64,000 bases of DNA from Ilumatobacteraceae bacterium (GTDB lineage: Bacteria; Actinomycetota; Acidimicrobiia; Acidimicrobiales; Ilumatobacteraceae): assembly GCA_965229005.1 (NCBI GenBank), contig CBDDIP010000002.1, positions 1,014,125 to 1,078,124 of the forward strand, read 5' to 3'. The position numbers and the translations under genes were made by a program. Each line of letters starts with the position of its first letter. The first letter of the stretch is position 1. This document shows positions 10,311 through 23,572 of the stretch, piece after piece. The notes under the pieces were generated by a model. That model was not told the origin of the DNA and searched no databases. It saw nothing but the letters and a program-made list of their open reading frames with translations.

Positions 10311-10792
10311 CTGTCGATTCTTATTCGTCGGTGGACACTCGGCCAAGTGGTCGCATTGGTGATGAACATCCATGGCTAACCTCTTAGACCGTGTAGGTAC
10401 TCGCCAGCACTCCGAACCTCAGATGATGTCGCACTCGCCTCCAAGCTGGACCGCTGGCTCCGATCACCCGATTCCCGCTGAACTCACAGCTGTTCGCTGG
10501 AGCGACGGAAGTGTCGAATGCCGGTTCAGATTGCTCCATCCTGCGGGATCGCTGCTGGCCGCCGATGGTGACGTCGGAGTTGTACTGACAGCGCCTGGCG
10601 CAGAGTGCACCAGATGCTCCGAGGCCTGCTCCGAATGACATCGCGACAACTACGACACCGTGAAGTAACGATTCGTCGACCTCCGTCGACGTCCCTCGGT
10701 GCGTCGTATGAGCGAGCTCGCGCCGAGTTCTGAAGGTTTCGCCATCTCGGTCAGCGGAGCAGCTACCTAGATCTCGGTTCATGGTGGAGGAT

Positions 10793-10837: not shown

Positions 10838-12964
10838 GTGAACCACGATCGCCACCATGAGAGTTCCGTCAATGCGTCGACCGCAGACAACGCCCACCAT
10901 GTCTCGCACTCGTCACCGTCCGTTAGGCCCCAACACACGCGGCACGCTGACGGCGGCCATGCAGATCCCGGGGATCACAAGGGCCATGACAAGCACGCCG
11001 GCCACGATCCGGAGGTGTTTCGCCGACGTTTCTGGCTGACTCTCGCGCTCACGATCCCGCTCGTCGCCACCAGCCACCTGGTCATGGGGTGGCTCGGGTA
11101 TTCAGTCGACCTGCCGCTGATGGGCTGGTTCGGCCCCGTGCTTGGGTCGATCGTGTTCTGGTGGGGCGGCTGGCCGTTCCTCGCCGGTGGTGTCGCCGAG
11201 ATCCGCCACCGCCAGCCAGGGATGATGCTGCTGATCACGATGGCGATCACCGTCGCATACCTCGCATCTATGTCCACAAGCCTCGATTGGCTCGACCTCG
11301 AGTTCTGGTGGGAACTGGCAGCACTCGTCTCGATCATGCTGCTGGGCCATTGGCAAGAGATGAAGGCGATCGGTCAGGCGCGGAACGCGCTGGCGGCACT
11401 TGCAGCGCTGCTGCCCGACGAGGCCGATCTGGTTGACGGCGAGACCATCCGCGCGGTCCCAGCCGCCGCGTTGAAGGTCGGCGATGTCGTATTGGTTCGC
11501 CCCGGAGCGCGGATTCCCGCTGACGGGACAATCGTCGTCGGCGTCGCCGAAGTCGACGAGTCGATGATCACCGGCGAGTCAAAGCCGGTCAACCGTGCAA
11601 TCGGCGACCGGGTGGTGGCCGGCACGGTGTCGACGGATAGCTCGATCCGCGTACGGGTCGATGCCGTTGGCGACGACACGGCCCTCGCTGGGATCCAGCG
11701 ACTCGTCGCCGACGCCCAGGCCAGCCAAAGTCGCGCCCAGGTGCTCGCTGACCGGTTCGCCGCCTGGTTGTTCTACGTCGCGGTCGCGGCGGGTGTGCTC
11801 ACGTTTCTTGTCTGGTGGGCGATTGGCGACATCAACACTGCGATCACCAGCACCGTCACCGTATTGGTCATCGCGTGCCCCCACGCTCTCGGGTTGGCGA
11901 TTCCACTCGTCGTTGCACTGTCGACAGCTGTTTCCGCCAAAGCAGGGATCTTGGTCAAGGACAGATTGGCCCTCGAGCGGATGCGATCGATCGACACCGT
12001 CTTGTTCGACAAGACGGGAACTCTCACCAAGGGTTCGCACGTGGTGACCGGCGTCGCCGGCATCGACCACTTCGACAAGGACCGAGTGCTCAGCACAGCC
12101 GCCGCCATAGAAGCCGAGAGCGAGCACCCGCTTGCCCGCGCGATCGTCACAGCCGCCGGTGATTTCGACGGACCCAAGGCGACCAACTTCAGGTCGGTCG
12201 CCGGGCGGGGCGTGACTGCAGACATCCTTGGTGTGGCCTACGCCATCGGCGGCCCGGCCTTGCTCCGCCAACGTCACCTCGCCATCCCCCAAGCGCTCCA
12301 CAACCACGTCATCGGATGGGAGCAGCGCGGGGCTTCTGTGCTCTTCCTCGCGATTGCCGAAGAGGTCGTTGGCGTCATGGCGCTCGAGGACGAGATAAGG
12401 CCCGAGGCGCGGCAAGCCATTTCCGAGCTGCGCCAGATGGGCGTCGACGTTGCAATGATCACCGGTGACGCCCGCCAGGTCGCCGAAGCTGTCGGCCGCG
12501 ACCTCGGCATCGCCAAGGTCTTCGCTGAAGTCCTTCCCGAAGACAAGGATCAGGCCGTAGCCGAGCTTCAGCAGCAAGGCTTAACGGTTGCCATGGTCGG
12601 CGACGGCGTCAACGACGCTCCTGCTCTTGCTCGCGCCGACGTCGGCCTGGCGATCGGCGCCGGTACAGATGTCGCCATCGAGTCGGCAGGCGTGGTCCTC
12701 GCAGCGAGTGACCCGCGTGGGGTCGCCAGCGTGATCCGCCTCTCTCGGGCCAGCTATCGCAAGATGATCCAGAACCTTGCCTGGGCAGCGGGCTACAACA
12801 TCGTCGCCATCCCGCTCGCCGCCGGAAGCTTCGCCTGGGCGGGGATCACGCTGTCTCCGGCCATCGGTGCCGTCCTGATGAGCCTTTCCACCATCGTCGT
12901 GGCACTCAACGCTCAGCTGCTCCGCCGTGTTCAGCTCCGGCCCGACACCATCGAATCGCCTTGA
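10838..12964 (+). CDS. copB: copper-translocating P1B-type ATPase, CopB subtype (His-rich N-terminus, CPH motif)
   Basis: His-rich N-terminal region (…HHVSHS…HADGGHADPGDHKGHDKHAGHD…), TM-6 CPH (VLVIACPHALGLAIP), DKTGTLT phosphorylation site, GDGVNDAP hinge; GTG start after GGAAAGGA RBS. Confidence 0.9.
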   Translation: MNHDRHHESSVNASTADNAHHVSHSSPSVRPQHTRHADGGHADPGDHKGHDKHAGHDPEVFRRRFWLTLALTIPLVATSHLVMGWLGYSVDLPLMGWFGPVLGSIVFWWGGWPFLAGGVAEIRHRQPGMMLLITMAITVAYLASMSTSLDWLDLEFWWELAALVSIMLLGHWQEMKAIGQARNALAALAALLPDEADLVDGETIRAVPAAALKVGDVVLVRPGARIPADGTIVVGVAEVDESMITGESKPVNRAIGDRVVAGTVSTDSSIRVRVDAVGDDTALAGIQRLVADAQASQSRAQVLADRFAAWLFYVAVAAGVLTFLVWWAIGDINTAITSTVTVLVIACPHALGLAIPLVVALSTAVSAKAGILVKDRLALERMRSIDTVLFDKTGTLTKGSHVVTGVAGIDHFDKDRVLSTAAAIEAESEHPLARAIVTAAGDFDGPKATNFRSVAGRGVTADILGVAYAIGGPALLRQRHLAIPQALHNHVIGWEQRGASVLFLAIAEEVVGVMALEDEIRPEARQAISELRQMGVDVAMITGDARQVAEAVGRDLGIAKVFAEVLPEDKDQAVAELQQQGLTVAMVGDGVNDAPALARADVGLAIGAGTDVAIESAGVVLAASDPRGVASVIRLSRASYRKMIQNLAWAAGYNIVAIPLAAGSFAWAGITLSPAIGAVLMSLSTIVVALNAQLLRRVQLRPDTIESP

Positions 12965-12977
12965 AGGGGTTGCCAAC

Positions 12978-13556
12978 TCACCCGATCAGGAGCGTCTCCA
13001 GAGTCGAGATGTACATCGTCGATTCGGCGACGATGCTCGATGCGAGGGTGAGCGCGTCTTGGTCGGTCCCATCAGCCCGTTCCGACTGTGCGATCTCGAG
13101 CGCGCCATGGAGATGTCGAATCGTCAGGACGAGCCACGTTCGGTCGAAGTCGGGACCTGACAGCTCGCCAAGTTGGTGGAGTTCCTCTGGGCTGATCATG
13201 CCACCGATGTAGACGAGGTCGCCGGCGTCGGCGTCGCTCGGCGTGACTTGGGCTTTGCTCAGCCAGATGCGCAGCAACCGCACATCATCGGCTCCAGTTG
13301 TCAGAAGTTGGGTAGCGACCGCTGCAATCACCGGTGACGCCCGACGGCCCACGTCGGATGCGAGTTCGGCAAGCTCGATGGTCTGCCGGTGGTGACGTTC
13401 CATGTAGACCGCGAAGGTTCGGTCTGACAGGTCCGGCCATTCCGCGGTTGTCGTAATTGGCAGGTGGGCAGCAGCAGGCGGTCGCGGAGAGCCACAGCCA
13501 ACGAGGATCACCGCAACGGACACGAGGGCCGACCGCCTACGCGTGGTTCGAACCAT
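12978..13556 (-). CDS. DUF305-domain lipoprotein (copper-resistance-associated family)
   Basis: Lipobox ([23 protein letters not shown]); two DUF305-type His motifs (FAVYMERHHRQTIELAEL, WLVLTIRHLHGALEIAQ). Start ATG overlaps the M23 stop (ATGA at 13554-13558). Confidence 0.6.
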   Translation of the reverse strand: MVRTTRRRSALVSVAVILVGCGSPRPPAAAHLPITTTAEWPDLSDRTFAVYMERHHRQTIELAELASDVGRRASPVIAAVATQLLTTGADDVRLLRIWLSKAQVTPSDADAGDLVYIGGMISPEELHQLGELSGPDFDRTWLVLTIRHLHGALEIAQSERADGTDQDALTLASSIVAESTMYISTLETLLIG

Positions 13557-14782
13557 CAACAGTGCCTGCGCACCGTCGGGTATGGGTTGACTGCCGCGCC
13601 GCCGCCGGGGTGGATCTCGAAGTGCAAGTGGTTCGCACTGGTGTTGCCCGTCGCTCCGACGTACCCGATTACATCTCCAGCACTCACAGCACGCGAGGTT
13701 CCCTCCCACGCCGAGAGATGTGCGTAGTAGTACTTGTTGCCGTCAGATCCGGTGAGCCAGATCGCGTTGCCACCGAGCTTGTTCGTCTTCATTGTCACCG
13801 AGCCGGAGACCACTGCGACGAGCGGAGTTCCGTGCGGGCTCATCATGTCGACGCCCTCGTGCCTTCGCCCACCGGATCGCGGATCGCCCCAGGTGTCTCC
13901 GAACGCATTCGGGCCGGCCACGGGGCAGCGCCAGGCTCCGCCGGTGACGACCGGCAAGGGCGCAGACGTAGGAGGCATAGGGACTGTCGCCGGAGCGGCG
14001 GCTGGGGCAGGAACGCTTGATGGCGGTGCCTGTGGTTGGGGGAGCGCGGGGGTCGGAGGAGGTTCGCTTGAACCACCACCACGCGAGGGCTGCGGAGACG
14101 CGGTAGGAGCCCATGTCTGCTCCTCGATCGCTGCTTTCGCCGCGAGCTCGGCGCGACGCTCGGTCACCTTGGACTCGTAGGCACGTCCAATCGCGTCGTT
14201 CGTCAGTTGTTGCTGCAGCGTCTCGAGGTCGCTGAGCTGCTGCTCGAGGGCCGCTCGTTCGGCGTCCAGCTGTTGGACGAGGGCCTCGTTCTCTCTCCGC
14301 AGCTCGCCAGCTCGCTCGGACTGGTGCAGCAGGCTGGTGCGCAGGGAATCGAGCTCGTCGAGGTTGCCTGCCCCAACGTCGAAGGCGACCTCGGTGAGGG
14401 ACTGGCGCTCGATGGCCAACGAAGGGTCCGGCGCGAACACCAACAGCGTGCTTTCGCTGGACGCTCCGACATAGCGGCCGATGGCCCGGTCGACGAGCTG
14501 CGCCTCCAGCGCATCGATCTGCCCGGCAGTGTCGGCGGTCGCCGAATCTGAGGCGAGGATCTCGGCCGCCAGATCCTCGGCTAGCTGCGACGCCTGTGCC
14601 CAACGCTGAGCAAGTTCATCGGCGTGGTCCTGCTGCCGAACGATCTCAGCGGCGACGTCCTCAGGGGTCTGGTCGCGTGCGGCGAATACCGGTGCTCCGC
14701 CTGGCATGGCTAGAGCCAGTGCTACGCCGACGGCAACTAACAGACTGCCGCTGCGTCGTACTCGATGTTTCATTTCCATGAC
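13556..14782 (-). CDS. M23 family (LytM-like) metalloendopeptidase with N-terminal coiled-coil
   Basis: C-terminal M23 signature (…[25 protein letters not shown]…YAHLSAW…[16 protein letters not shown]). Long Ala/Glu/Gln-rich coiled-coil before it. Signal peptide begins at [24 protein letters not shown] (start 14782 chosen over ORF start 14911). Confidence 0.7.
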
Positions 14783-14837
14783 GGAAGGTAGCGTAACTTC
14801 TACATCGTGTCGTAACAAGCCGCCTGACGCGGCCGAT

Positions 14838-15692
14838 TCACAGGACGCGCCGGATCGTGACGATGTTCGCAGTTGGGATCGGACCGATTCGGACCGATTG
14901 GCCGGTGCCAACAGCCTGGATCCAGGTCGTTGCGCTCAGGGCGACGCCAACGTGACCGATCTGGGTTCGATCGGTGGACGAAGTCAGCAGGATGAGGTCT
15001 CCGGCCTTGATCGGGCCGAGGGTCAGGTCGACCGGTCGGCCGACTGATGCCAGTGCCCGACTCTGATGTGGGAGCACGACGCCGATCACTCGATACGCAG
15101 CCACGACGAGACCCGAGCAATCGTAGCTGTCGGGGCCAGCGGCGAAGTACTTGTAAGGCTTCCCGATCTGAGCCCGCAGGAACGAAGTCAGGCGTTCATA
15201 GGTGGTCAGCCCCGCCGCTGGCACCGGCACTGCCGTCGCCCCAGGAGCGGGCGCTGGTGCGGGTGGATTGGGAACGCGGATCGTCTGGCCCGGGTGGATC
15301 ACTGTCGTCGCGGAGAACCCGTTTAGGATGCGCAGCGACCGAACATCGGTGCCTGCCCGCTTGGCGATACCGATCATCGTGTCGCCCTTCTTGACTACGT
15401 ACGCATCGGAGGCGTCGTTCGGAGTCGGACGCGAGGTCAGATGTGGCGTAGGAACAACTAGCTCATCGCCAGGCTGAATCACGGAACGGATCGTCAATCC
15501 GTTCGCGCTCAGGAGGGCTTCGAGGGTGACATCAAGCCGGCGCGCGATCGCCGACAGGCTGTCGCCGCGCCGCACCACGTAGGTAGAGGCCGTGTCATCG
15601 AGCGGGCGATCGGCAAGAGCAGACGTCGGACCGGTGCTGATCGACACGAGCAGGGCGATGGCGAGAACGATGGCGTTGAAACGAGCATTCAT
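14838..15692 (-). CDS. secreted cell-wall hydrolase: 2x LysM + NlpC/P60 endopeptidase
   Basis: Signal peptide; two LysM repeats ([16 protein letters not shown]…, [16 protein letters not shown]…); NlpC/P60 catalytic Cys ([11 protein letters not shown]) and His (IGHVGVAL). Confidence 0.8.
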
Positions 15693-15707: not shown

Positions 15708-15720
15708 CTACACCGTGTAG
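15708..15720. promoter_or_regulatory. BlaI/CopY-type operator-like palindrome (site A) CTACA-ccg-TGTAG, 16 bp upstream of the NlpC/P60-M23-DUF305 unit
   Basis: Seen directly (ggCTACAccgTGTAGga). Same 5-3-5 architecture as four other sites in the island. Confidence 0.45.
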
Positions 15721-15756
15721 GACCTTGACTGTTTCTTGAGCATTTTCTGCGACGGG

Positions 15757-16335
15757 TCAGCCGAGGATGGCAGTCATCTGCTCGATCTCCGCCTGCTGCG
15801 CGGTGATGATGTCGGCTGCCAAGCCGAGTGCATCCGCGTTCGAACCGTTTACCTTCTCGATTCGCGCCATTTCGATCGCACCTTGATGGTGTTCGATCAT
15901 CATGGTCAGCCACATCGAGTCGAAGTCCACACCCGACATGGTGCGAAGTGCTGCCATGTCCTCGTCCGACATCATGCCCGTCATGCCGTCCATGTCATGG
16001 CCGTCGGTGGTGCCCATCTTTTCCTGGCCCCACATCGACATCCAGCCGGTCATCATCTCGATCTCGGGATCCTGAGCTGCCTTGATCTTCGTCGCCAGGC
16101 CGGTCACCTCGGCGCTTGCGGCGCGAGCCGGGTCGAGCGCGATGTCGGCCATCTCCACGGCCTGCTGGTGGTGCGGGATCATCCCTTGCACGAACGTCAC
16201 GTCAGCGCCGTTGAAGTCACTCATCCCTGGCGACCCTGCCGTGGCGGCGGGCACCTGTGTGCCCATGTCCATGGAGGAATGGGACGAGCCGCTCCCGCAA
16301 GCGGTGAGCACGACCGACAACGCGACGGCGGACAT
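15757..16335 (-). CDS. DUF305-domain lipoprotein (second paralog)
   Basis: Lipobox MSAVALSVVLTACGS (start 16335 rather than ORF start 16407); Met/His-rich; DUF305 motifs GMIPHHQQAVEMADIAL and MMIEHHQGAIEMARI. Confidence 0.75.
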   Translation of the reverse strand: MSAVALSVVLTACGSGSSHSSMDMGTQVPAATAGSPGMSDFNGADVTFVQGMIPHHQQAVEMADIALDPARAASAEVTGLATKIKAAQDPEIEMMTGWMSMWGQEKMGTTDGHDMDGMTGMMSDEDMAALRTMSGVDFDSMWLTMMIEHHQGAIEMARIEKVNGSNADALGLAADIITAQQAEIEQMTAILG

Positions 16336-16407
16336 CAGGCTGGCACGATTCAGGTTCACAACGATCTCCTCGTAACATGACTTGGTCGTCGCTCTCATAG
16401 CGAACAA

Positions 16408-16420
16408 CTACACTGTGTAG
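16408..16420. promoter_or_regulatory. BlaI/CopY-type operator-like palindrome (site B) CTACA-ctg-TGTAG in the divergent DUF305 / repressor promoter region
   Basis: Seen directly (aaCTACActgTGTAGga); about 50 bp upstream of the repressor start and about 73 bp upstream of the DUF305 start. Confidence 0.5.
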
Positions 16421-16465
16421 GAGCGTATCGCTTGATCTTCCGCAACACTCGTCAGAACGCAGGAG

Positions 16466-16828
16466 GTGGTGATGTCCAAGCGGCCCGATGGAACGCTTGA
16501 ACACGATGTGCTTACCGTGCTGTGGGCTGCGGACGGTCCGCTTCAACCCGGCGACGTGAGAGACCGATTGCCGTATGCGCTCGCATACACGAGCGTCGCG
16601 ACGGTGCTTGGTCGGTTGCACACGAAGGGATTGGTGCAACGTGTGGCGGCCGGTCGCGCCTTCGCGTACGGCGCCGTGGTGAAGGAGTCGGAACTCGCGG
16701 TCCAGCGGATGAACGACGTTCTCGCTGGCGCCAGCGACCGGGGTGCGGTTCTCGCTGGCTTCGTCGGCAAGTTATCGAAGCGAGACGTCAAGCTGCTCCG
16801 GGCGCGGTTGGAGCAGGGCGAGCGCTGA
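16466..16828 (+). CDS. BlaI/MecI/CopY family (penicillinase-repressor-type) winged-helix transcriptional repressor
   Basis: N-terminal wHTH (…LEHDVLTVLWAADGPLQPGDVRDRL…YTSVATVLGRLHTKGLVQR…) and dimerisation C-terminus; no C-terminal Cys cluster, so BlaI-type rather than metal-binding CopY-type. AGGAGG RBS; GTG/GTG/ATG start cluster at 16466-16472. Confidence 0.85.
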   Translation: MVMSKRPDGTLEHDVLTVLWAADGPLQPGDVRDRLPYALAYTSVATVLGRLHTKGLVQRVAAGRAFAYGAVVKESELAVQRMNDVLAGASDRGAVLAGFVGKLSKRDVKLLRARLEQGER

Positions 16829-17697
16829 TGCGTCTGTCGCTCCTGGCGCCGCTTGCCGCGGCGCTCCTGTTGGCATGCTCGGTGACCGCAGTGCATCGTC
16901 GACTACGTCCTGTCGTCGCAGCTCAGGTGACGATGGCGACGATCGCTGTCGTGGTGGTCGCTGCCGTGCCGACGCTGTGGCTGATCAGCATAGGGTTCAT
17001 CGCACACACGCCGTTGCTGGGTCGCGGTCTTCGGTGGTGCGCGGAGACCTTCGGCGTGCATCGTCGCGTTCCGACGTGGGCCGGACTTTCTGCGTGCGCG
17101 TTGTCGGCAGTCGGAGTTGCCCGAGGAGCGCGGGCGTTGCGTCTACATCGCCGCCTCCGCGGCGGCAGCGGCACGATCGAGGTTGCCGAACACGCCACTC
17201 CGTTCGCCTACACGATGCCCGGCGCCACCGGCGACATCGTCATCTCGACCGGACTCCTCGCGATTCTCGAGCCAGACGAACAGGCTGTCGTCATCGCCCA
17301 CGAACGTGCCCATGCCCTGCACCGTCACGACCGGTTCCTCCTGGCGAGTCGAATGGCGGAGCTCCTCGTGCCGTTCTTGCGACCCCTGTGTCGTCGGCTG
17401 ACCTTCTCGCTCGAGCGGTGGGCGGATGAAGCGGCAGCCGCAGAGTGCGGTGACCGGCATCTGGTCGCCCGCACGCTCGGCAAGGTAGCGCTCACGCGGG
17501 CTGCACCCACCTCCGCGATGGCTTTCGCCGGCCTCGGCGTTGCGGGACGCGTCGACGCACTACTCGCCGTCTCGCCGCAACGCTCGCGCCCCCTGCTTGT
17601 CGCGATGCTCGCTGTCGGCTCGATCGCCGTCGCTGGCTTCGGCGTGATCCAGCTGCACCACCTTGCGTCGATCATCGTGACGCTCTGCCCAGACTGA
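16828..17697 (+). CDS. M56 family (BlaR1/MecR1-like) membrane zinc metallopeptidase without an extracellular sensor domain
   Basis: Four TM helices, HEXXH (VVIAHERAHALHRHD); 289 aa, no penicillin-binding sensor domain. ATG at 16828 overlaps the repressor stop (TGATG). Confidence 0.8.
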   Translation: MRLSLLAPLAAALLLACSVTAVHRRLRPVVAAQVTMATIAVVVVAAVPTLWLISIGFIAHTPLLGRGLRWCAETFGVHRRVPTWAGLSACALSAVGVARGARALRLHRRLRGGSGTIEVAEHATPFAYTMPGATGDIVISTGLLAILEPDEQAVVIAHERAHALHRHDRFLLASRMAELLVPFLRPLCRRLTFSLERWADEAAAAECGDRHLVARTLGKVALTRAAPTSAMAFAGLGVAGRVDALLAVSPQRSRPLLVAMLAVGSIAVAGFGVIQLHHLASIIVTLCPD

Positions 17698-17702
17698 ACT
17701 CT

Positions 17703-17716
17703 TACACTTTGTAGTA
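17703..17716. promoter_or_regulatory. BlaI/CopY-type operator-like site C TACA-ctt-TGTAGTA, 11 bp upstream of the TlpA-like gene
   Basis: Seen directly (cttTACActtTGTAGTAatc); shares the TGTAGTAAT right flank with sites D and E. Confidence 0.45.
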
Positions 17717-17726
17717 ATCTGCAGGG

Positions 17727-18284
17727 GTGGATGGAACCGAAGGGCTCGTTCGTCGGCTGCGAACGCTGAGTGGTCGCAAGGCCGTCGTGTCGCTGGTAGT
17801 GCTAATCGCCATCGTGTTCTCGATCACTCGCCACTCATCGACGACGTCGTTTGTCGCCAAGGGCACACCGATCCCAATCCTCCCAGAAGGCGATCTGCGG
17901 CCAGTCTCGGAAATGGAGTTCGAGGGGATCCTGGTCGGGCTGCGAGGCAAGCCCGTGATCGTCAACGTTTGGGCCTCGTGGTGCTCACCCTGTCGAACCG
18001 AGACCCCGCTCCTCGAGCGCGCGTGGAGACAACACAACGAGAGCGTCGTCATCCTTGGCGTCGCATCAAGAGATGTTCGCCCGAGCGCGGCGGCATTCCT
18101 GGAGGAGTTCGGCGTGACCTACCCAACGCTCTTCGACGACAGCGGAGCCATCCGCTCGGCCCTCGGCGTTCGCGGCTTCCCGACGACCTACATTTTCAAC
18201 GCCAACGGGGAGTTGCAGTCGACGATCGTCGGCGGGCTCACTGAACAGCGTCTCGCCGCCGTGCTCAAGGATCTCCAGGCATGA
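17727..18284 (+). CDS. TlpA/ResA-like membrane-anchored thiol:disulfide oxidoreductase (thioredoxin fold)
   Basis: Signal-anchor TM then thioredoxin domain with WCSPC active site (VIVNVWASWCSPCRTETP). Confidence 0.8.
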   Translation: MDGTEGLVRRLRTLSGRKAVVSLVVLIAIVFSITRHSSTTSFVAKGTPIPILPEGDLRPVSEMEFEGILVGLRGKPVIVNVWASWCSPCRTETPLLERAWRQHNESVVILGVASRDVRPSAAAFLEEFGVTYPTLFDDSGAIRSALGVRGFPTTYIFNANGELQSTIVGGLTEQRLAAVLKDLQA

Positions 18285-18991
18285 TCGACACTGGTCTGCT
18301 TGTGTCGCTCGTGCTGGTCGTAGTAGTTCCTACGGCGTTCGTCCCTCGGAGAAGGTCTGCGGCCATCGCGAACGGAGTTGTCGATGTCGCGATTGGGGCT
18401 GCGATCTTCGGTCTGCTCGTCGGACGTGCGGGGGCACTGGTCATCGATGACCCCGGCTCGCTCCGACACCTGTCGGACTTCGTGGTGATTCGAAGTGGCG
18501 TCGAATTCTGGCCGGGGCTCGTCGCCGGGGTGGCCTGGTTGTGGTTCGGGGCCCGGCGTGACGGCGTTCGCCTGATCGATCGTCTCGCTGCGCTGACCCC
18601 GGCGATGGTGATGGCCTGGGCGGTGTACGAGGGAACCTGCGTCATTCGCGACGGCTGTGCCGGCCCGGTCACGGCGTTCGGGCTCACCCCAAGCGGACTC
18701 AGCCATTCACAGTTCCCTGTCGGGTTGGCTGTCGCGGCCGGCGGCTTGCTGCTCACGAGCATCGTCGGCTGGCTCGCCGCCCGCCGAGCCGATTCGACAA
18801 CGGTCGCACTCGCCGGACTCATCGGCGTTGCGGGGATCAAATCAATCGCTTCATTCTGGCTTCCTCACCTCGGCTCCGCGCTAACGCGTCAGCATCGCGA
18901 GTCGCTTGTTGTCTTCGCCGTCGCCACCATTGGACTGCTCGCGACCGCCAGGGCACGAGGGACATCGGACCTTGCGGCGGACGTTGTGTGA
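18281..18991 (+). CDS. hypothetical polytopic membrane protein with CX4C motif
   Basis: 6-7 predicted TM helices; CVIRDGC in a loop; both ends ATGA-coupled to the flanking tlpA-like and ccdA genes. Confidence 0.5.
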   Translation: MIDTGLLVSLVLVVVVPTAFVPRRRSAAIANGVVDVAIGAAIFGLLVGRAGALVIDDPGSLRHLSDFVVIRSGVEFWPGLVAGVAWLWFGARRDGVRLIDRLAALTPAMVMAWAVYEGTCVIRDGCAGPVTAFGLTPSGLSHSQFPVGLAVAAGGLLLTSIVGWLAARRADSTTVALAGLIGVAGIKSIASFWLPHLGSALTRQHRESLVVFAVATIGLLATARARGTSDLAADVV

Positions 18992-19704
18992 ACGGCTTCA
19001 CCATGCCTGCGATGGCGGTGCTCGCCGGAGTCGTTTCGGCGACGTCGCCCTGCGTGCTCCCGGTCATTCCGGGCTTCCTCGCCGCTGTTGCGTCGCCCGC
19101 TCGCGCCGACGAGCGCCGACCAGCCGTCGCCGGTGCCTTGGCCTTCGCCGCTGGCTTCGCCGCGGTATTCGTGGCTCTGGGCGCCGCTGCGTCCGCGATC
19201 GGGTCCATCCTCTACGACCACCTCACGCTCATGCTTCAGGTTGCTGGAGCACTGCTCGTGCTCCTCGGCCTGCAGATGTTGGGAGTCGTGAGATGGCGTT
19301 TGTTGACGACAGAGCATCGTGCGATTGCGTTGGAACGCGTGGCGGGCGGACCGCGCCGGGCGATCCTGCTCGGTGCGGTCTTCGCTGCAGGATGGACTCC
19401 GTGTGTCGGACCTGTTCTTGCCGTGATCCTCACGAAGGCTGCAGCAGATGCGTCGCTGACTCAGGGAGTGCTGCTCCTCGCGGCGTACTCGGCTGGACTG
19501 GGCGCGCCTTTTCTGCTTGCCGCCGTCTGGTTTGATCGCTCAGCTCGAGCCCGTCACTGGATCAGCCGCCACGCACGGTCGATGCAGTCGGTCACCGGTG
19601 CGGTGATGGTGGCGAGTGGGGTGTTGTACGCGTCGGGTGCTTGGTCGGCGGTCTTCGTACGGATACAGGCATGGCTTGCGAGAGCCGGTTGGCCACCTGT
19701 CTAG
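18988..19704 (+). CDS. ccdA: cytochrome c-type biogenesis / disulfide-reductant transporter CcdA (DsbD core)
   Basis: Two conserved Cys in TM1/TM4 (SPCVLP, TPCVGP); 6-TM DsbD_2 architecture. Confidence 0.8.
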   Translation: MNGFTMPAMAVLAGVVSATSPCVLPVIPGFLAAVASPARADERRPAVAGALAFAAGFAAVFVALGAAASAIGSILYDHLTLMLQVAGALLVLLGLQMLGVVRWRLLTTEHRAIALERVAGGPRRAILLGAVFAAGWTPCVGPVLAVILTKAAADASLTQGVLLLAAYSAGLGAPFLLAAVWFDRSARARHWISRHARSMQSVTGAVMVASGVLYASGAWSAVFVRIQAWLARAGWPPV

Positions 19705-19720
19705 TTGCGGTCGGACTTAG

Positions 19721-19737
19721 TACTACATAGTGTAGTA
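19721..19737. promoter_or_regulatory. BlaI-type operator-like site D, perfect palindrome TACTACA-tag-TGTAGTA ending 3 bp before the multicopper-oxidase start
   Basis: Seen directly. Fits the 6-N5-6 form TAC(G/T)AC-N5-GT(A/C)GTA reported for mycobacterial BlaI and contains the TACA…TGTA core of cop/bla boxes. Confidence 0.55.
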
Positions 19738-19739
19738 AT

Positions 19740-21215
19740 ATGGTTGAACGACACACCCGGCGGTGGCTCCTTCAGTTCGGAGCAGCCGCTCTTGCGGCTG
19801 GCTGCAGCGCCACCCGCCGCCGATCGAGCGAGGCCACCAGCACGTTGCCGTCCCTGCGTGATCCACTCCCGGGGCGCGCAGCGGACGTCTCCGCTCGGCT
19901 CCGTGCGCAGCCGTTCGAACTCGACCTCGCAGGCACGATCCACCGGACAACCGCATACAACGATTCCGTGCCCGGGCCTCTGCTGCGCGCAAGAGCGGGT
20001 GAGCTCATCGAGGTCACGTTGGACAACGGCATGGCCGAGCCGACCTCGATCCACTGGCACGGACTCGCCGTCCCGAATCCCGTCGACGGTGTCCCGGACG
20101 TCACGCAGCCCGCCGTCGGCGTCGGCACATCGTTCGTCTATCGGTTCGTCGCTCCGGACCCGGGCACCTACTGGTTTCATCCGCACCACGGCTTGCAACT
20201 CGACCGAGGGCTCTACGCGCCGCTCATCGTCGACGATCCGGCAGAACCGTTGCACTACGACACCGAGCAACTGATCGTCATCGACGACTGGCTTGACGGT
20301 GGAACGAGCACACCGGAAGCGGAACTGCGACGCCTCAAAGAAGGCGGCGCTGCGATGGAAGAGATGGGAGCGATGAGCACGTCGCCTCTGCTCGGTGGGG
20401 ACGCCGGCGACGTCGTCTACCCATATCACCTCATCAACGGCCGGCCGCTGGCAGACCCGCTCACCCTCGAACCTCGCCCCGACCAAGGTGATCGTGTTCG
20501 GCTGCGGATCATCAACGCAGCAAGCGATACCGCATACAGGTTCGCTATCGGTGGGCACCGGCTGACGGTCACGCACGCGGACGGCTTTCCCGTCATCCCC
20601 GTCGAAGTCGATGCGCTCATCCTCGGCATGGGCGAGCGATACGACGTCGTGTACGAAGCGCTCAGCGGTGCCTGGCCGGTCATTGCAGTTGCCGAAGGTA
20701 AGGGTGCCCATGCCGGAGCGATCCTCCGAACGGTAGATGCCGCGACATCGGAGCCCCCGACCTTGTCCGCCGGCGCCGCCAACCTCGAGGGCGAGTGTCT
20801 CCGCTACAGCTTGCTACAGGCTGTTGAGTCCGTCACGCTCCGACCGCCGGACGAGCACCGCACGATCGCAGTCGAGCTGACCGGAGGGATGTCGGCGTTC
20901 GACTGGGGTATCAACGGTCGGCGGTACGGCGTCGACGACGAGGTGATCGATCTCGTCGACGGGGAGTGGGTCACGTTCAACATCACGAACACGACTGACA
21001 TGTGGCACCCGATGCACCTCCATGGTCACACCCCGCAACTCGACGCGTCGCGTGGCGGCCCTCGCAAAGACACCGTCAACGTTCTGCCGGGCTCGTCCAT
21101 CTCCTGGACGATGCGTGCCAACAACCCTGGGACGTGGATGTTGCACTGCCACAACGCCTATCACCTCGAAGGTGGCATGGCGACCTTGATCACGTACGCG
21201 CCCAATGACGATTGA
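19740..21215 (+). CDS. TAT-exported multicopper oxidase (CueO/MmcO-like)
   Basis: Twin-arginine signal ([24 protein letters not shown]); four copper-binding motifs (TSIHWHGL, WFHPHHG, HPMHLHGH, MLHCHNAYHLEGGM). Confidence 0.9.
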   Translation: MVERHTRRWLLQFGAAALAAGCSATRRRSSEATSTLPSLRDPLPGRAADVSARLRAQPFELDLAGTIHRTTAYNDSVPGPLLRARAGELIEVTLDNGMAEPTSIHWHGLAVPNPVDGVPDVTQPAVGVGTSFVYRFVAPDPGTYWFHPHHGLQLDRGLYAPLIVDDPAEPLHYDTEQLIVIDDWLDGGTSTPEAELRRLKEGGAAMEEMGAMSTSPLLGGDAGDVVYPYHLINGRPLADPLTLEPRPDQGDRVRLRIINAASDTAYRFAIGGHRLTVTHADGFPVIPVEVDALILGMGERYDVVYEALSGAWPVIAVAEGKGAHAGAILRTVDAATSEPPTLSAGAANLEGECLRYSLLQAVESVTLRPPDEHRTIAVELTGGMSAFDWGINGRRYGVDDEVIDLVDGEWVTFNITNTTDMWHPMHLHGHTPQLDASRGGPRKDTVNVLPGSSISWTMRANNPGTWMLHCHNAYHLEGGMATLITYAPNDD

Positions 21216-21224
21216 GAGATCACA

Positions 21225-21605
21225 ATGCCCCCGAACAAACGACGCACCGCGCCTGGCAGGATCCACCAAGGACGGGTGACGCGTTCGGCTGGAGAACCGG
21301 ACGGCGTGCGCCGTCAACCGGATGCGACGGCTGCGAGTCAGCGCCGCCGTCCTCCCGAGACGGTGGAGCCGAACCCTCGCTACACACCGAAGCGCAAATA
21401 TGTGCGACTTCGCCCGACATGGCACAAGGTGACCGGCTACGTGATGGTCGCGGTGGCGCTGACAACGTTCGTGTTCAACCAGATCATGCTGCTGAGCCCG
21501 TCCGCTCCTTTGCTGCCAGGTGGCCACAACCCTGCCTACATGCTCCTAGGCCTCGCGCTCGCGACGTGGTCGACCTGGTGGCTCGGGTGGTTCGACCGTG
21601 AATGA
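21225..21605 (+). CDS. small membrane protein with basic N-terminus and two TM helices (CrgA-like architecture)
   Basis: GAGAG RBS then ATG; …PKRKYVRLRPTWHKVTGYVMVAVALTTFVF… and a second TM; architecture like CrgA-type septation proteins, but the family call is tentative. Confidence 0.4.
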   Translation: MPPNKRRTAPGRIHQGRVTRSAGEPDGVRRQPDATAASQRRRPPETVEPNPRYTPKRKYVRLRPTWHKVTGYVMVAVALTTFVFNQIMLLSPSAPLLPGGHNPAYMLLGLALATWSTWWLGWFDRE

Positions 21606-21615
21606 TGACGACCCT

Positions 21616-22563
21616 TCATTGGCCGGGAAGATCGTTGCCGGAGCGGTATTGCTCATCAGTGTGCTCACCGTTCTCTACTTCTCGCTCGGAATGCCCGGGA
21701 TGGACCACGCCCCCTAACCTCGCTTCTGAGTGAGTGGTCTCGAGTACCTCAAAGCGGCTTTTTCGACCCAGACCTGCATCGACGGTCAAGTAGGCGGAGG
21801 ACGCAACGACGACGCCGATCGAGACCCATTGGTTGAGACGCAGACCACCGAACGCGTGGGCTCGATCGACCCGCAAACCTTCGACCCAGAAGCGACCGCT
21901 GAAGTAGCCGAACAAGTAGAACGCGAACAACCGGCCGGGCCGAAGCGTCGCGACCTTGTCGATCCAGAGCAAGACCAAGCAGAGCGTCAGCGTCCACAGC
22001 GACTCGTACAAGAACGTCGGATGAAAGGTCGTGCCCGGCGCGAACCCCGCTGGAACCTTGTCGGCCGACACGCGAAGCGCCCACGGAAGCGAGGTTGGCT
22101 GGCCGAAGAGCTCCTGGTTCCACCAGTTCCCCCAGCGCCCAATCGATTGAGCCAGTGGAATGGCAGGCGCCGACGCGGTCAGAACTGTCGGTACGGCGAC
22201 ACCCCTCCGACGTGCCGCGACCAGGCCACCGATCAATCCCCCAAACAAACCACCAGGGATGCCGAGCCCTCCCTTCCAGACCATCGGCACGCGCTCCCAG
22301 TGGCCTCGAAAGAGATCGACGTCAGTCACGACGTGGTAAAGGCGAGCACCCACGACGCCCGCAACCACACCCCAGATGGCGATCGAGGACATGTCGTCCC
22401 TCGTGCCACCTTTGACTCGATCGAGACGGCGCGCCGCCAACGTCACAGCGGCGACGATCCCAAGGGCGATCATCATCCCGTATGCGTTCAGACGGAGCGG
22501 GCCAAGCGAGATCGTCGAGCCCGGCGGGCTGGGCATTGTTGAAATCACGATGAGCGCCGTCAC
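21616..22563 (-). CDS. lgt: prolipoprotein diacylglyceryl transferase
   Basis: Lgt signature …SIGRWGNWWNQELFG… and conserved 7-TM layout. Confidence 0.9.
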   Translation of the reverse strand: MTALIVISTMPSPPGSTISLGPLRLNAYGMMIALGIVAAVTLAARRLDRVKGGTRDDMSSIAIWGVVAGVVGARLYHVVTDVDLFRGHWERVPMVWKGGLGIPGGLFGGLIGGLVAARRRGVAVPTVLTASAPAIPLAQSIGRWGNWWNQELFGQPTSLPWALRVSADKVPAGFAPGTTFHPTFLYESLWTLTLCLVLLWIDKVATLRPGRLFAFYLFGYFSGRFWVEGLRVDRAHAFGGLRLNQWVSIGVVVASSAYLTVDAGLGRKSRFEVLETTHSEARLGGVVHPGHSEREVENGEHTDEQYRSGNDLPGQ

Positions 22564-22573
22564 GGGACAAAAC

Positions 22574-22590
22574 TACTACATGGTTTAGTA
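22574..22590. promoter_or_regulatory. BlaI-type operator-like site E TACTACA-tgg-TTTAGTA (one mismatch to site D) between divergent lgt and the alpha/beta-hydrolase gene
   Basis: Seen directly (aacTACTACAtggTTTAGTAatag); flanks near-identical to site D. Confidence 0.4.
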
Positions 22591-22606: not shown

Positions 22607-23572
22607 GTGGCGATGCCCGAGAACGCCCTAGCGTCACCCGAGATGCCGAGCCCCGACACCGACCCGCAACGCTTCGCCGTGCACCACGCCAGCCCACGCG
22701 GGTTTCGCCAGGCGTACGTGCACGCGGGCGTGGGCGGCGTGCCGCTGCTGTGCGTTCACGGTTGGCCGGAGTCCAAGCGCATCTTCTGGCGGGTCATCGA
22801 GCCGCTCGTGTCGGCCGGCTTCGAGGTGATCGTCCCCGACCTGCGCGGCTTCGGCGACAGCGAGCTCGGACCGGACGGCTTCCACGACGTCGTCAGCCAC
22901 GTGCACGATCTGCATGCGCTGGTGCGCGACCACCTCGGCCACGAGCGCGTCGTGCTCGTCGGTGGCGACCTCGGTGGTCCGGTCGTGCAGGACCTTGCGC
23001 TGCGTCATCCCGACTGGGTCGACCGGATGGTGCTGTTCAACTCGCCGCTGCCGTACCTCAAGGACCGCATGGCCGCCATCCCCGGCACGCGCCCTGCGCG
23101 CGAGGCCGCCGACTACTTCCTGCGCCAGGGCCTCGACCCCGACGGTCTCGCCGCCGAGCTGACCACGCCCGAGCAACGCCGGCGCTACATCGCCACCTTC
23201 TACACGAGCCGCTTCTGGGGACACCCCGGCGCGTTCGACGACGAGGCCGTCGCCTTTCACACCGAACCGTTCGGTGACGCCGCTCACCTCCGCGCCAGCT
23301 TCGGTGGCTACGAGAGCTCGTTCGACGAGGCCAAGCGCAGCGGGCCCGGCATCCTGGCCCGCAACGAGCGGACGCCGACGCTGATCCTCCACGGCACGAG
23401 CGACCACGTCATCTACCCGGCCTTCGACCGCATGGCTGCCGAGGTCTTCGCCCGCCACGTCGGTCCGTTCCTGCTCCGCGATTGCGGGCACTTCGTCCCG
23501 TGGGAGGCACCGCATGCACTGGTCAGCGGAACGGCTGCCTTCTGCAGCGATCTCCTCGCCGGCCGCCGTTAG
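22607..23572 (+). CDS. alpha/beta-hydrolase fold enzyme, epoxide hydrolase / haloalkane dehalogenase-like
   Basis: HGWPES oxyanion-hole motif; Asp nucleophile elbow (GGDLGGPV); typical about 320 aa. Confidence 0.75.
   Translation: MAMPENALASPEMPSPDTDPQRFAVHHASPRGFRQAYVHAGVGGVPLLCVHGWPESKRIFWRVIEPLVSAGFEVIVPDLRGFGDSELGPDGFHDVVSHVHDLHALVRDHLGHERVVLVGGDLGGPVVQDLALRHPDWVDRMVLFNSPLPYLKDRMAAIPGTRPAREAADYFLRQGLDPDGLAAELTTPEQRRRYIATFYTSRFWGHPGAFDDEAVAFHTEPFGDAAHLRASFGGYESSFDEAKRSGPGILARNERTPTLILHGTSDHVIYPAFDRMAAEVFARHVGPFLLRDCGHFVPWEAPHALVSGTAAFCSDLLAGRR

Follow-up and report, generated by a model that had tools for sequence, protein, structure and literature searches.

The 64-kb window analyzed here (64,000 nucleotides of contig CBDDIP010000002.1 from an Ilumatobacteraceae bacterium) contains a copper island at ~10-22.6 kb, in which a BlaI/MecI/CopY-family repressor gene and an overlapping gene for a membrane metalloprotease lie among genes for copper-handling and cell-envelope proteins. 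A short palindrome recurs in front of the transcription units of this island and is very likely the operator of the repressor, which would thereby autoregulate and repress at least six units. The core components are listed below. Predicted operators are labelled A to F, and their scores in bits refer to a 19-bp position weight matrix (PWM) that was trained on related loci and applied at a main threshold of 14 bits.

14798..14814: predicted operator F, TTCTACATCGTGTCGTA, in the gap that separates the stop of nlpC/P60 from the M23 start; 19.4 bits
15706..15722: predicted operator A, GGCTACACCGTGTAGGA, 15 nt upstream of the nlpC/P60 ATG; 16.7 bits
16406..16422: predicted operator B, AACTACACTGTGTAGGA, in the divergent DUF305/repressor promoter region; 28.5 bits
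16472..16828, + strand: BlaI/MecI/CopY-family repressor, 118 amino acids (aa); Pfam PF03965 (Penicillinase_R), 76.4 bits against a cut-off of 22.6
16828..17697, + strand: sensor-less M48/M56 membrane metalloprotease, 289 aa; HExxH motif, Pfam PF01435 (M48)
17700..17716: predicted operator C, TCTTACACTTTGTAGTA, 10 nt upstream of the tlpA GTG; 24.2 bits
19721..19737: predicted operator D, TACTACATAGTGTAGTA, directly before the multicopper oxidase gene (mco); 28.1 bits
22574..22590: predicted operator E, TACTACATGGTTTAGTA, with the half-site TTTAG, 10 nt upstream of the lgt GTG at 22563; 22.8 bits

Four exact copies of the core palindrome TACA-N3-TGTA (TACANNNTGTA) start at 15709, 16409, 17703 and 19724 of the window, compared with 0.00 expected from 100 dinucleotide-preserving shuffles. 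With the flanking C and G added and at most one mismatch allowed (CTACANNNTGTAG), 9 matches were obtained versus 0.14 expected, among them the degenerate copy at 22576. No match with a spacer of 0-2 or 4-7 nt was obtained in the window, the 3-nt spacer alone being found. The initial annotation had placed five such palindromes in front of transcription units; all five were recovered at their positions, and every site in the window does precede a transcription unit. The number is at least six, for the PWM adds a good site that had been overlooked (operator F; 14797-14815, CTTCTACATCGTGTCGTAA, 19.4 bits), 18 nt upstream of the M23 ATG at 14779. Operator F is conserved in the related locus L001 (17.4 bits), and a site of this kind precedes the M23 gene in 6 other loci. 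The PWM also flags two weak sites (10381-10399 and 10650-10668), and at 14 bits or more it finds none in the window outside 14.8-22.6 kb. Operator E forms the border of the island.

The palindrome was followed through 80 loci (1.01 Mb) collected around repressor homologues in Ilumatobacteraceae/Acidimicrobiia genomes, with one genome per species and 46-97% repressor identity, the closest relative being the metagenome-assembled genome (MAG) chromosome OZ257157.1 (97%). The exact core occurs 127 times in these loci. By comparison, 11 composition-matched control palindromes occur 0-32 times, the high counts being codon-driven and inside coding sequence, other spacers give at most 4 copies, and the N2 form known from Firmicutes (TACA-N2-TGTA) is absent from all 80 loci. 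These control counts, together with the zero expected from shuffling, led us to reject an effect of chance or composition. The conserved part spans 17 bp, (T)(A)CTACA-N3-TGTAG(T/G)(A), in which the core is extended by C at -1 in 125 of the 127 sites and by G at +11 in 115. A repeat or REP-like (repetitive extragenic palindrome) element was also rejected because the spacer and the flanks differ between the 127 copies and because few of the sites fall in coding sequence: only 14 of the 210 PWM sites scoring at least 14 bits (3 in reversed sequence) have their centres inside homology-defined coding sequence, which makes up 35% of the total, and 93% lie outside it, beside gene starts. At least one such site is present in 72/80 loci, and gene maps of the related islands display one operator per transcription unit.

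Before the repressor gene, the palindrome sits at a near-fixed offset, ~-61 or ~-48 from the start codon, in at least 64 of the 80 loci, and it recurs before copper and envelope genes; we therefore take it to be the operator of the repressor. Operator B would accordingly be the autoregulatory site, a reading we regard as very likely together with the control of the other units. The recurrence in related islands, which the initial annotation had proposed as a check, thus bears out its view of a BlaI-type repressor/M56 pair wired to a copper and envelope regulon. The names of the families found downstream were checked. The following lines give the number of loci with a site directly upstream over the number of loci with the gene, the window itself excluded:

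repressor: about 59/80
DUF305/CopM: 43/57
CopC-CopD fusion (absent from the window): 38/48
tlpA: 23/25, repeating the arrangement of operator C
mco: 11/23
lgt: 8/12
126-aa gene: 7/13
M23: 6/21
P-type ATPase: 6/24 (BlaI-type site)
YkuD L,D-transpeptidase: 4/10

The lgt gene, mentioned in the initial annotation as a possible target, is therefore a conserved one. In a few loci, sites are also followed by genes for a cupredoxin, for rhodanese and for YibE/F. In one of them (L020, 6476-7042, + strand), a plastocyanin/azurin-family cupredoxin gene lies 66 nt downstream of an operator, a notable parallel since PetR controls plastocyanin in cyanobacteria. Eight of the 80 loci (L036, L045 and L048 among them) have no site of 14 bits or more, and some loci without a good site carry variants such as CTACGACACTGTGTCGTAA (CGACA-N3-TGTCG), closer to the GACA-N3-TGTC of PetR. 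Several MAGs possess two or three paralogous repressor/protease pairs.

The genes around the repressor/protease pair are given below. The gene calls of the initial annotation agree with the Pfam and NCBIfam searches.

10838..12964, + strand: P1B-type ATPase with a His-rich N-terminus; Pfam E1-E2_ATPase, Hydrolase
12978..13556, - strand: DUF305 lipoprotein, second copy; Pfam DUF305, 83 bits; lipobox LVGC; its ATG overlaps the M23 stop by 1 nt
13556..14779, - strand: secreted M23 peptidase with a coiled-coil N-terminal part; Pfam Peptidase_M23; start ATG 14779
14838..15692, - strand: secreted LysM-LysM-NlpC/P60 cell-wall hydrolase; Pfam LysM x2, NLPC_P60
15757..16359, - strand: DUF305/CopM-family lipoprotein; Pfam DUF305, 164 bits; NCBIfam CopM, 104 bits (cut-off 90); the start is probably GTG 16359 after GAGGAG, the longest open reading frame (ORF) extending to 16407
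17727..18284, + strand: membrane-anchored TlpA/ResA-like thiol-disulfide oxidoreductase (CxxC); Pfam Redoxin/AhpC-TSA; NCBIfam ResA/DsbE subfamily
18281..18991, + strand: membrane protein with a sub-threshold Lgt-like match; Pfam LGT, 20.4 bits (cut-off 24.9)
18988..19704, + strand: CcdA/DsbD-type thiol electron transporter; Pfam DsbD_TM
19740..21215, + strand: three-domain multicopper oxidase with a twin-arginine signal and a lipobox; Pfam Cu-oxidase_3, Cu-oxidase, Cu-oxidase_2
21225..21605, + strand: 126-aa membrane protein with the N-terminus MPPNKRR and two transmembrane helices; no Pfam or NCBIfam match
21616..22563, - strand: prolipoprotein diacylglyceryl transferase (Lgt); Pfam LGT, 214 bits

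All predicted target products are exported or membrane-bound, as judged from signal peptides, lipoboxes or transmembrane helices; three of the regulon products are lipoproteins. The Lgt-like membrane protein lies between tlpA and ccdA in all 20 loci that have it. The conserved 126-aa membrane protein is encoded downstream of mco; of the 13 loci with its gene, 7 have a separate operator for it. The α/β-hydrolase gene at 22607 is an unlikely target, as it adjoins operator E only in the window and in L001. The G+C content is ~64% in the 10-22 kb region versus ~70% in the surroundings. No tRNA gene and no Rfam family above threshold were found in the 64-kb window, and no integrase or tRNA border was seen at the island.

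Conserved TTGnnn-17-TAnnnT elements accompany the operators. Twelve aligned upstream regions of mco share gTTGc, 17 nt, TAGTGT (within the operator), 6-7 nt and the ATG, and the window follows this layout with TTGCGG at 19705-19710, the -10-like TAGTGT at 19728-19733 inside operator D, and the ATG at 19740. For tlpA and lgt, a TAnnnT hexamer stands just after the operator, 6-7 nt before the GTG or ATG. The distances from site to start codon are tight across loci, at ~2 nt for mco, 9-13 nt for tlpA and 12-14 nt for lgt, while a generic sigma-70 scan returned nothing useful. This layout suggests that the promoters may be leaderless, with the bound repressor lying over the -10 or spacer region.

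The repressor starts at ATG 16472 and is 118 aa long, as in its homologues, rather than the 120 aa from 16466 first annotated. Its closest homologue of solved structure is M. tuberculosis BlaI (2G9W, E 1.7e-14 in a profile search), and its profile also matches MecI and BlaI structures. The TACA/TGTA inverted repeats, including the one in its own promoter, agree with what characterizes this family of regulators. It had been noted to lack a CxCxxxxCxC metal cluster, and the protein in fact contains no cysteine at all. Direct metal sensing of the CopY type was rejected on this ground and because the repressor scores 32.2 bits with the CopY/TcrY model TIGR02698, far below its cut-off of 121.95. 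Phe97 is invariant in 27 homologues and aligns in a profile alignment with F102, the Phe of ...LVLN|F..., of S. aureus BlaI/MecI (1SD4, 1OKR); the residue before it (P1) is Gly96 and not Asn. In the S. aureus proteins, N101-F102 is the bond reported to be cut by BlaR1/MecR1.

The stop codon of the repressor gene and the ATG of the protease gene overlap (TGATG, 16826-16830), and the same kind of overlap occurs in 63 of 71 loci, consistent with the translational coupling of the pair described initially. The protease matches PF01435 (M48, related) and not Pfam Peptidase_M56 at E <= 0.01, and its homologues carry either M56 or M48 as their NCBI names. Hydropathy and the AlphaFold2 helices reveal four hydrophobic helices; the HExxH...E domain lies between helices 3 and 4, and the zinc-site residues H158, E159, H162 and E196 are invariant among homologues. 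The protein ends 3 residues past its last helix (255-286 of 289 aa; homologue median length 290 aa), which leaves it with no C-terminal sensor domain and bears out the earlier remark that a penicillin-binding domain is missing. The AlphaFold model is confident, with a predicted local distance difference test score (pLDDT) of 84 and a predicted template modelling score (pTM) of 0.82, and displays a BlaR1-like fold. Among 45 close homologues, H278, C287 and W70 are invariant, and conservation reaches 90% or more for H60, C71 and H277; in the wider homologue set, the C-terminal HH-x8-C is the most persistent non-catalytic feature. By analogy with the topology of BlaR1, the H60/W70/C71 loop and the C-terminal HH-x8-C tail would face outward. 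The public annotation of the source genome appears to give a 186-aa product (P0121) that drops three N-terminal transmembrane helices, and the form conserved in relatives is that of 289 aa overlapping the repressor stop.

A different operator type is found at the P-type ATPase gene of the island, and its position relative to a weak PWM site is as follows.

10651..10667: weak operator-like site, TACGACACCGTGAAGTA, with the ATPase gene ~170 nt downstream; PWM 13.9 bits
10795..10809: CsoR-type operator, TACCTAGGGGGGGTA, of the form TAC-X9-GTA and including a G-tract; the ATPase start follows 29 nt downstream

TAC-X9-GTA with a G-tract is the form of CsoR operators (PMC3902906). The box is conserved in L001. 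Comparable boxes were found in 12 of the related loci, and bona fide csoR genes in 5; a regex search found no csoR gene in the 64-kb window. The ATPase is probably under CsoR-type control. Its regular membership in the BlaI-type regulon is not supported, as only weak sites lie far upstream and the CsoR-type box stands beside the start; whether the site at 10651..10667 belongs to the regulon is uncertain, the homologous position in L001 scoring 14.7 bits. Because of the box before the ATPase gene, the islands appear to combine two circuits, a CsoR-type one on the efflux pump and a BlaI-type one on exported proteins. The regulatory logic had been proposed to differ from the CsoR/RicR circuits, which holds for the copper genes with BlaI-type operators; CsoR is complemented here and not replaced. 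An 88-aa ORF (10372-10638, + strand) without a Pfam match ends in CxxCxxxC, is conserved as a protein sequence beside copper genes in L001, L026, L042, L040 and L030, and may encode an undescribed small metal-binding protein.

A precedent for a sensor-less protease that responds to copper is the PetR/PetP pair of Synechocystis sp. PCC 6803, in which PetR is degraded in a copper- and PetP-dependent manner, in extracts as well as in vivo (Garcia-Canas et al. 2021; bioRxiv 10.1101/2020.07.31.226407, PMC7896320). PetR is a BlaI/CopY-family repressor without a Cys motif, with a conserved Phe at the cleavage site and the operator GACA-N3-TGTC, and PetP is a four-helix sensor-less M48/M56 protease, of which two conserved loop methionines were proposed as ligands (PMC7896320). 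The trigger of the protease, which the initial annotation had given as unknown, thus has a parallel in PetP, and conserved His and Cys residues are available in the present protein; that copper is the trigger here is what we infer.

Taken together, we consider moderately probable a scheme that joins the palindromic operator, control by the repressor, cleavage by a copper-activated protease and a separate CsoR-type cytoplasmic circuit. The repressor, as a dimer, would occupy six or more operators, each lying across or right next to the -10 region of a promoter that is in most cases leaderless, and would shut off its own operon together with nlpC/P60, M23-DUF305, DUF305/copM, tlpA-(lgt-like)-ccdA, mco-(126-aa gene) and lgt. 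Derepression would be brought about by the co-translated four-helix M48/M56 protease, which would cut the repressor at the conserved Gly96-Phe97 and be activated by copper as PetP is. Copper would be sensed on the outer membrane face via His and Cys residues, those of the H60/W70/C71 loop between helices 2 and 3 and of the C-terminal HH-x8-C, and cytoplasmic copper would be handled separately through the CsoR-type operator on the adjacent ATPase gene. Within this scheme, a response of the regulon to copper is likely from its gene content, and direct copper sensing by the protease on the outer face with a cut at G96-F97 is plausible by analogy. Copper has been reported to interfere with thiol-dependent envelope enzymes. 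We tentatively propose that the protease itself could be the extracytoplasmic copper sensor, by means of the HH-x8-C tail and the H60/C71 loop, and could form with the Cys-free repressor a one-step switch for the whole envelope copper-stress response of Acidimicrobiia, with CsoR serving the cytoplasm. If this is true, it would amount to two-compartment sensing like that of CueR/CusRS, built from entirely different parts, and to the first PetRP-type switch governing copper homeostasis proper.

Several observations weigh against this scheme. Its support comes from sequence comparison and predicted structure, and the gene content is what points to copper as the signal, while M23, NlpC/P60, YkuD, lgt and tlpA-ccdA would fit a general envelope or thiol stress equally well. 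Because the repressor gene served as the anchor for collecting the loci, on which the PWM was also trained, the co-occurrence of motif and repressor follows in part from construction, which does not apply to the association with the other gene families; the motif scan covered the 64-kb window and the 80 loci rather than a whole genome. BlaR1 is the best structural match of the protease in Foldseek, but a weak one (E ~0.2, template modelling score 0.34-0.39). The loop residues H60 and C71 are lost in a distant clade, and H78 varies even in the close one. The loop contains no conserved Met, the two loop methionines of PetP being absent, and the four Arg/Lys in the loop between helices 2 and 3 are unusual for an outside loop. 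Likeness to PetR/PetP was judged against the published description and not by sequence comparison with Slr0240/Slr0241.

The closest rival keeps the same circuit and replaces the signal, so that envelope thiol oxidation or cell-wall damage, perceived through Cys71/Cys287 or an accessory protein, would switch it on and copper would be one inducer among several. The presence of tlpA-ccdA, M23, NlpC/P60, YkuD and lgt in the regulon speaks for it, as do the conserved cysteines on the outer side of the protease and the sensor-less mycobacterial BlaR, which answers beta-lactam or redox stress by an unknown route. We nevertheless regard it as unlikely: leaving aside the repressor, the sites most often precede genes for dedicated copper proteins (DUF305/CopM in 43 loci and CopC-CopD in 38, besides the multicopper oxidase and the cupredoxin), and the islands also hold copper ATPases and CsoR boxes. 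Sensing of beta-lactams in particular is unlikely, since the protease has no sensor domain and neither a beta-lactamase nor a penicillin-binding protein was seen among the genes directly downstream of the sites.

The direction of the response might also be the reverse, with the repressor governing copper acquisition or cuproenzyme maturation, the genes turned on when copper is scarce, and proteolysis working in the opposite sense to that in PetRP. In other bacteria, CopC-CopD and TlpA-type proteins are linked to copper import and to assembly of the CuA centre, and PetR acts both as a repressor and as an activator. On the other hand, a multicopper oxidase and CopM-type copper-binding proteins are typical of copper excess, the islands adjoin an efflux ATPase with a CsoR-type box, and operators overlapping -10 regions point to plain repression, which makes this direction improbable. 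Least of all do we expect that a different regulator binds the palindrome, or that it is a repeat or an element of the promoter, with the BlaI-type gene a mere neighbour. Binding of the repressor to the palindrome is a prediction, and part of the palindrome coincides with -10-like hexamers; however, TACA/TGTA inverted repeats are the known operator type of this repressor family, the site is palindromic with variable spacers and flanks, and its offset from the start codon ranges from ~-61 at the repressor to ~-2 at mco. The repressor gene is moreover the one regulator gene that all loci have in common, though that follows from the way the loci were collected. Repressor control of a copper-responsive regulon stays our preferred interpretation.

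Copper regulation in Actinomycetota has been described almost wholly through CsoR/RicR and two-component systems, and the proteolytic PetRP switch is known only from cyanobacteria, where it governs a photosynthetic choice through four genes. The present locus and its ~80 relatives predict a PetRP-like design that would run an envelope copper regulon of several operons in a lineage widespread in waters and soils. In this prediction the operator and the promoters are defined, and the candidate ligands form a short list. It also offers a second independent family for asking how a sensor-less BlaR-type protease is switched on, a question shared with PetP and mycobacterial BlaR. Finally, the regulon content links copper stress to lipoprotein maturation (lgt) and to peptidoglycan remodelling (M23, NlpC/P60, YkuD).

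Compared with known systems, the pair shares its repressor family, a copper regulon and a TACA...TGTA box with CopY/CopR of Enterococcus, Lactococcus and Streptococcus. However, CopY senses Cu(I) directly via a C-terminal CxC(x4)CxC without a partner protease, whereas the repressor here is Cys-free and its box has an N3 spacer; reviews treat CopY-type regulation, with the CxC motif and the TACA-N2-TGTA box, as a Firmicute speciality. From S. aureus BlaI/BlaR1 and MecI/MecR1 it differs in the absence of a penicillin-binding sensor domain, in the 3-nt spacer and in targets that are not beta-lactam resistance genes. The pair of M. tuberculosis, BlaI (Rv1846c) and BlaR (Rv1845c), also belongs to Actinomycetota, provides the nearest structural homologue of the repressor and has a BlaR without the extracellular sensor domain, the signal of which is unknown. 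Its reported targets are blaC, ATP synthase and cytochrome bd and its inducers beta-lactam or redox stress, in contrast to the copper genes here. The CsoR/RicR systems of Actinomycetota share copper-responsive ATPase control with the island, as indicated by the canonical TAC-X9-GTA G-tract box before the ATPase gene of the window, but they use an unrelated protein family and operator and sense cytoplasmic Cu(I); the multicopper oxidase of M. tuberculosis is under RicR, whereas mco here carries a BlaI-type operator.

The closest parallel is PetR/PetP, and beyond it no literature was found that connects BlaI/M56 pairs with copper outside cyanobacteria. Both systems consist of a BlaI-family repressor without a Cys motif and an overlapping gene for a sensor-less protease with four transmembrane helices and a cytoplasmic HExxH; both have the conserved Phe at the BlaI cleavage position, the operator geometry xACA-N3-TGTx (AC-N5-GT) and a link to copper, which is deduced from gene content in the present case. 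They differ in phylum, Cyanobacteria versus Actinomycetota (Acidimicrobiia), and in the operator half-site, CTACA here and (T)GACA for PetR, so that cores of TAC-N5-GTA and GAC-N5-GTC keep the same spacing with another outer base. The candidate ligands are loop His/Cys residues and the C-terminal HH-x8-C instead of two loop methionines, and the repressor operon has an autoregulatory operator, whereas petRP mRNA is unchanged with copper. The regulon of PetRP comprises petE, petJ, slr0601 and slr0602, four genes in all (PMC7896320), compared with at least six units here for exported copper-handling proteins and for wall and lipoprotein enzymes. A 2023 review places PetRP outside the control of copper homeostasis proper and describes the role of BlaR homologues in heterotrophs as unknown. 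In conclusion, the system appears to be a proteolytic switch of the PetRP kind in a phylum other than Cyanobacteria; its half-site and candidate ligands differ from those of PetRP, and its copper regulon, directed at the cell envelope, is much larger.

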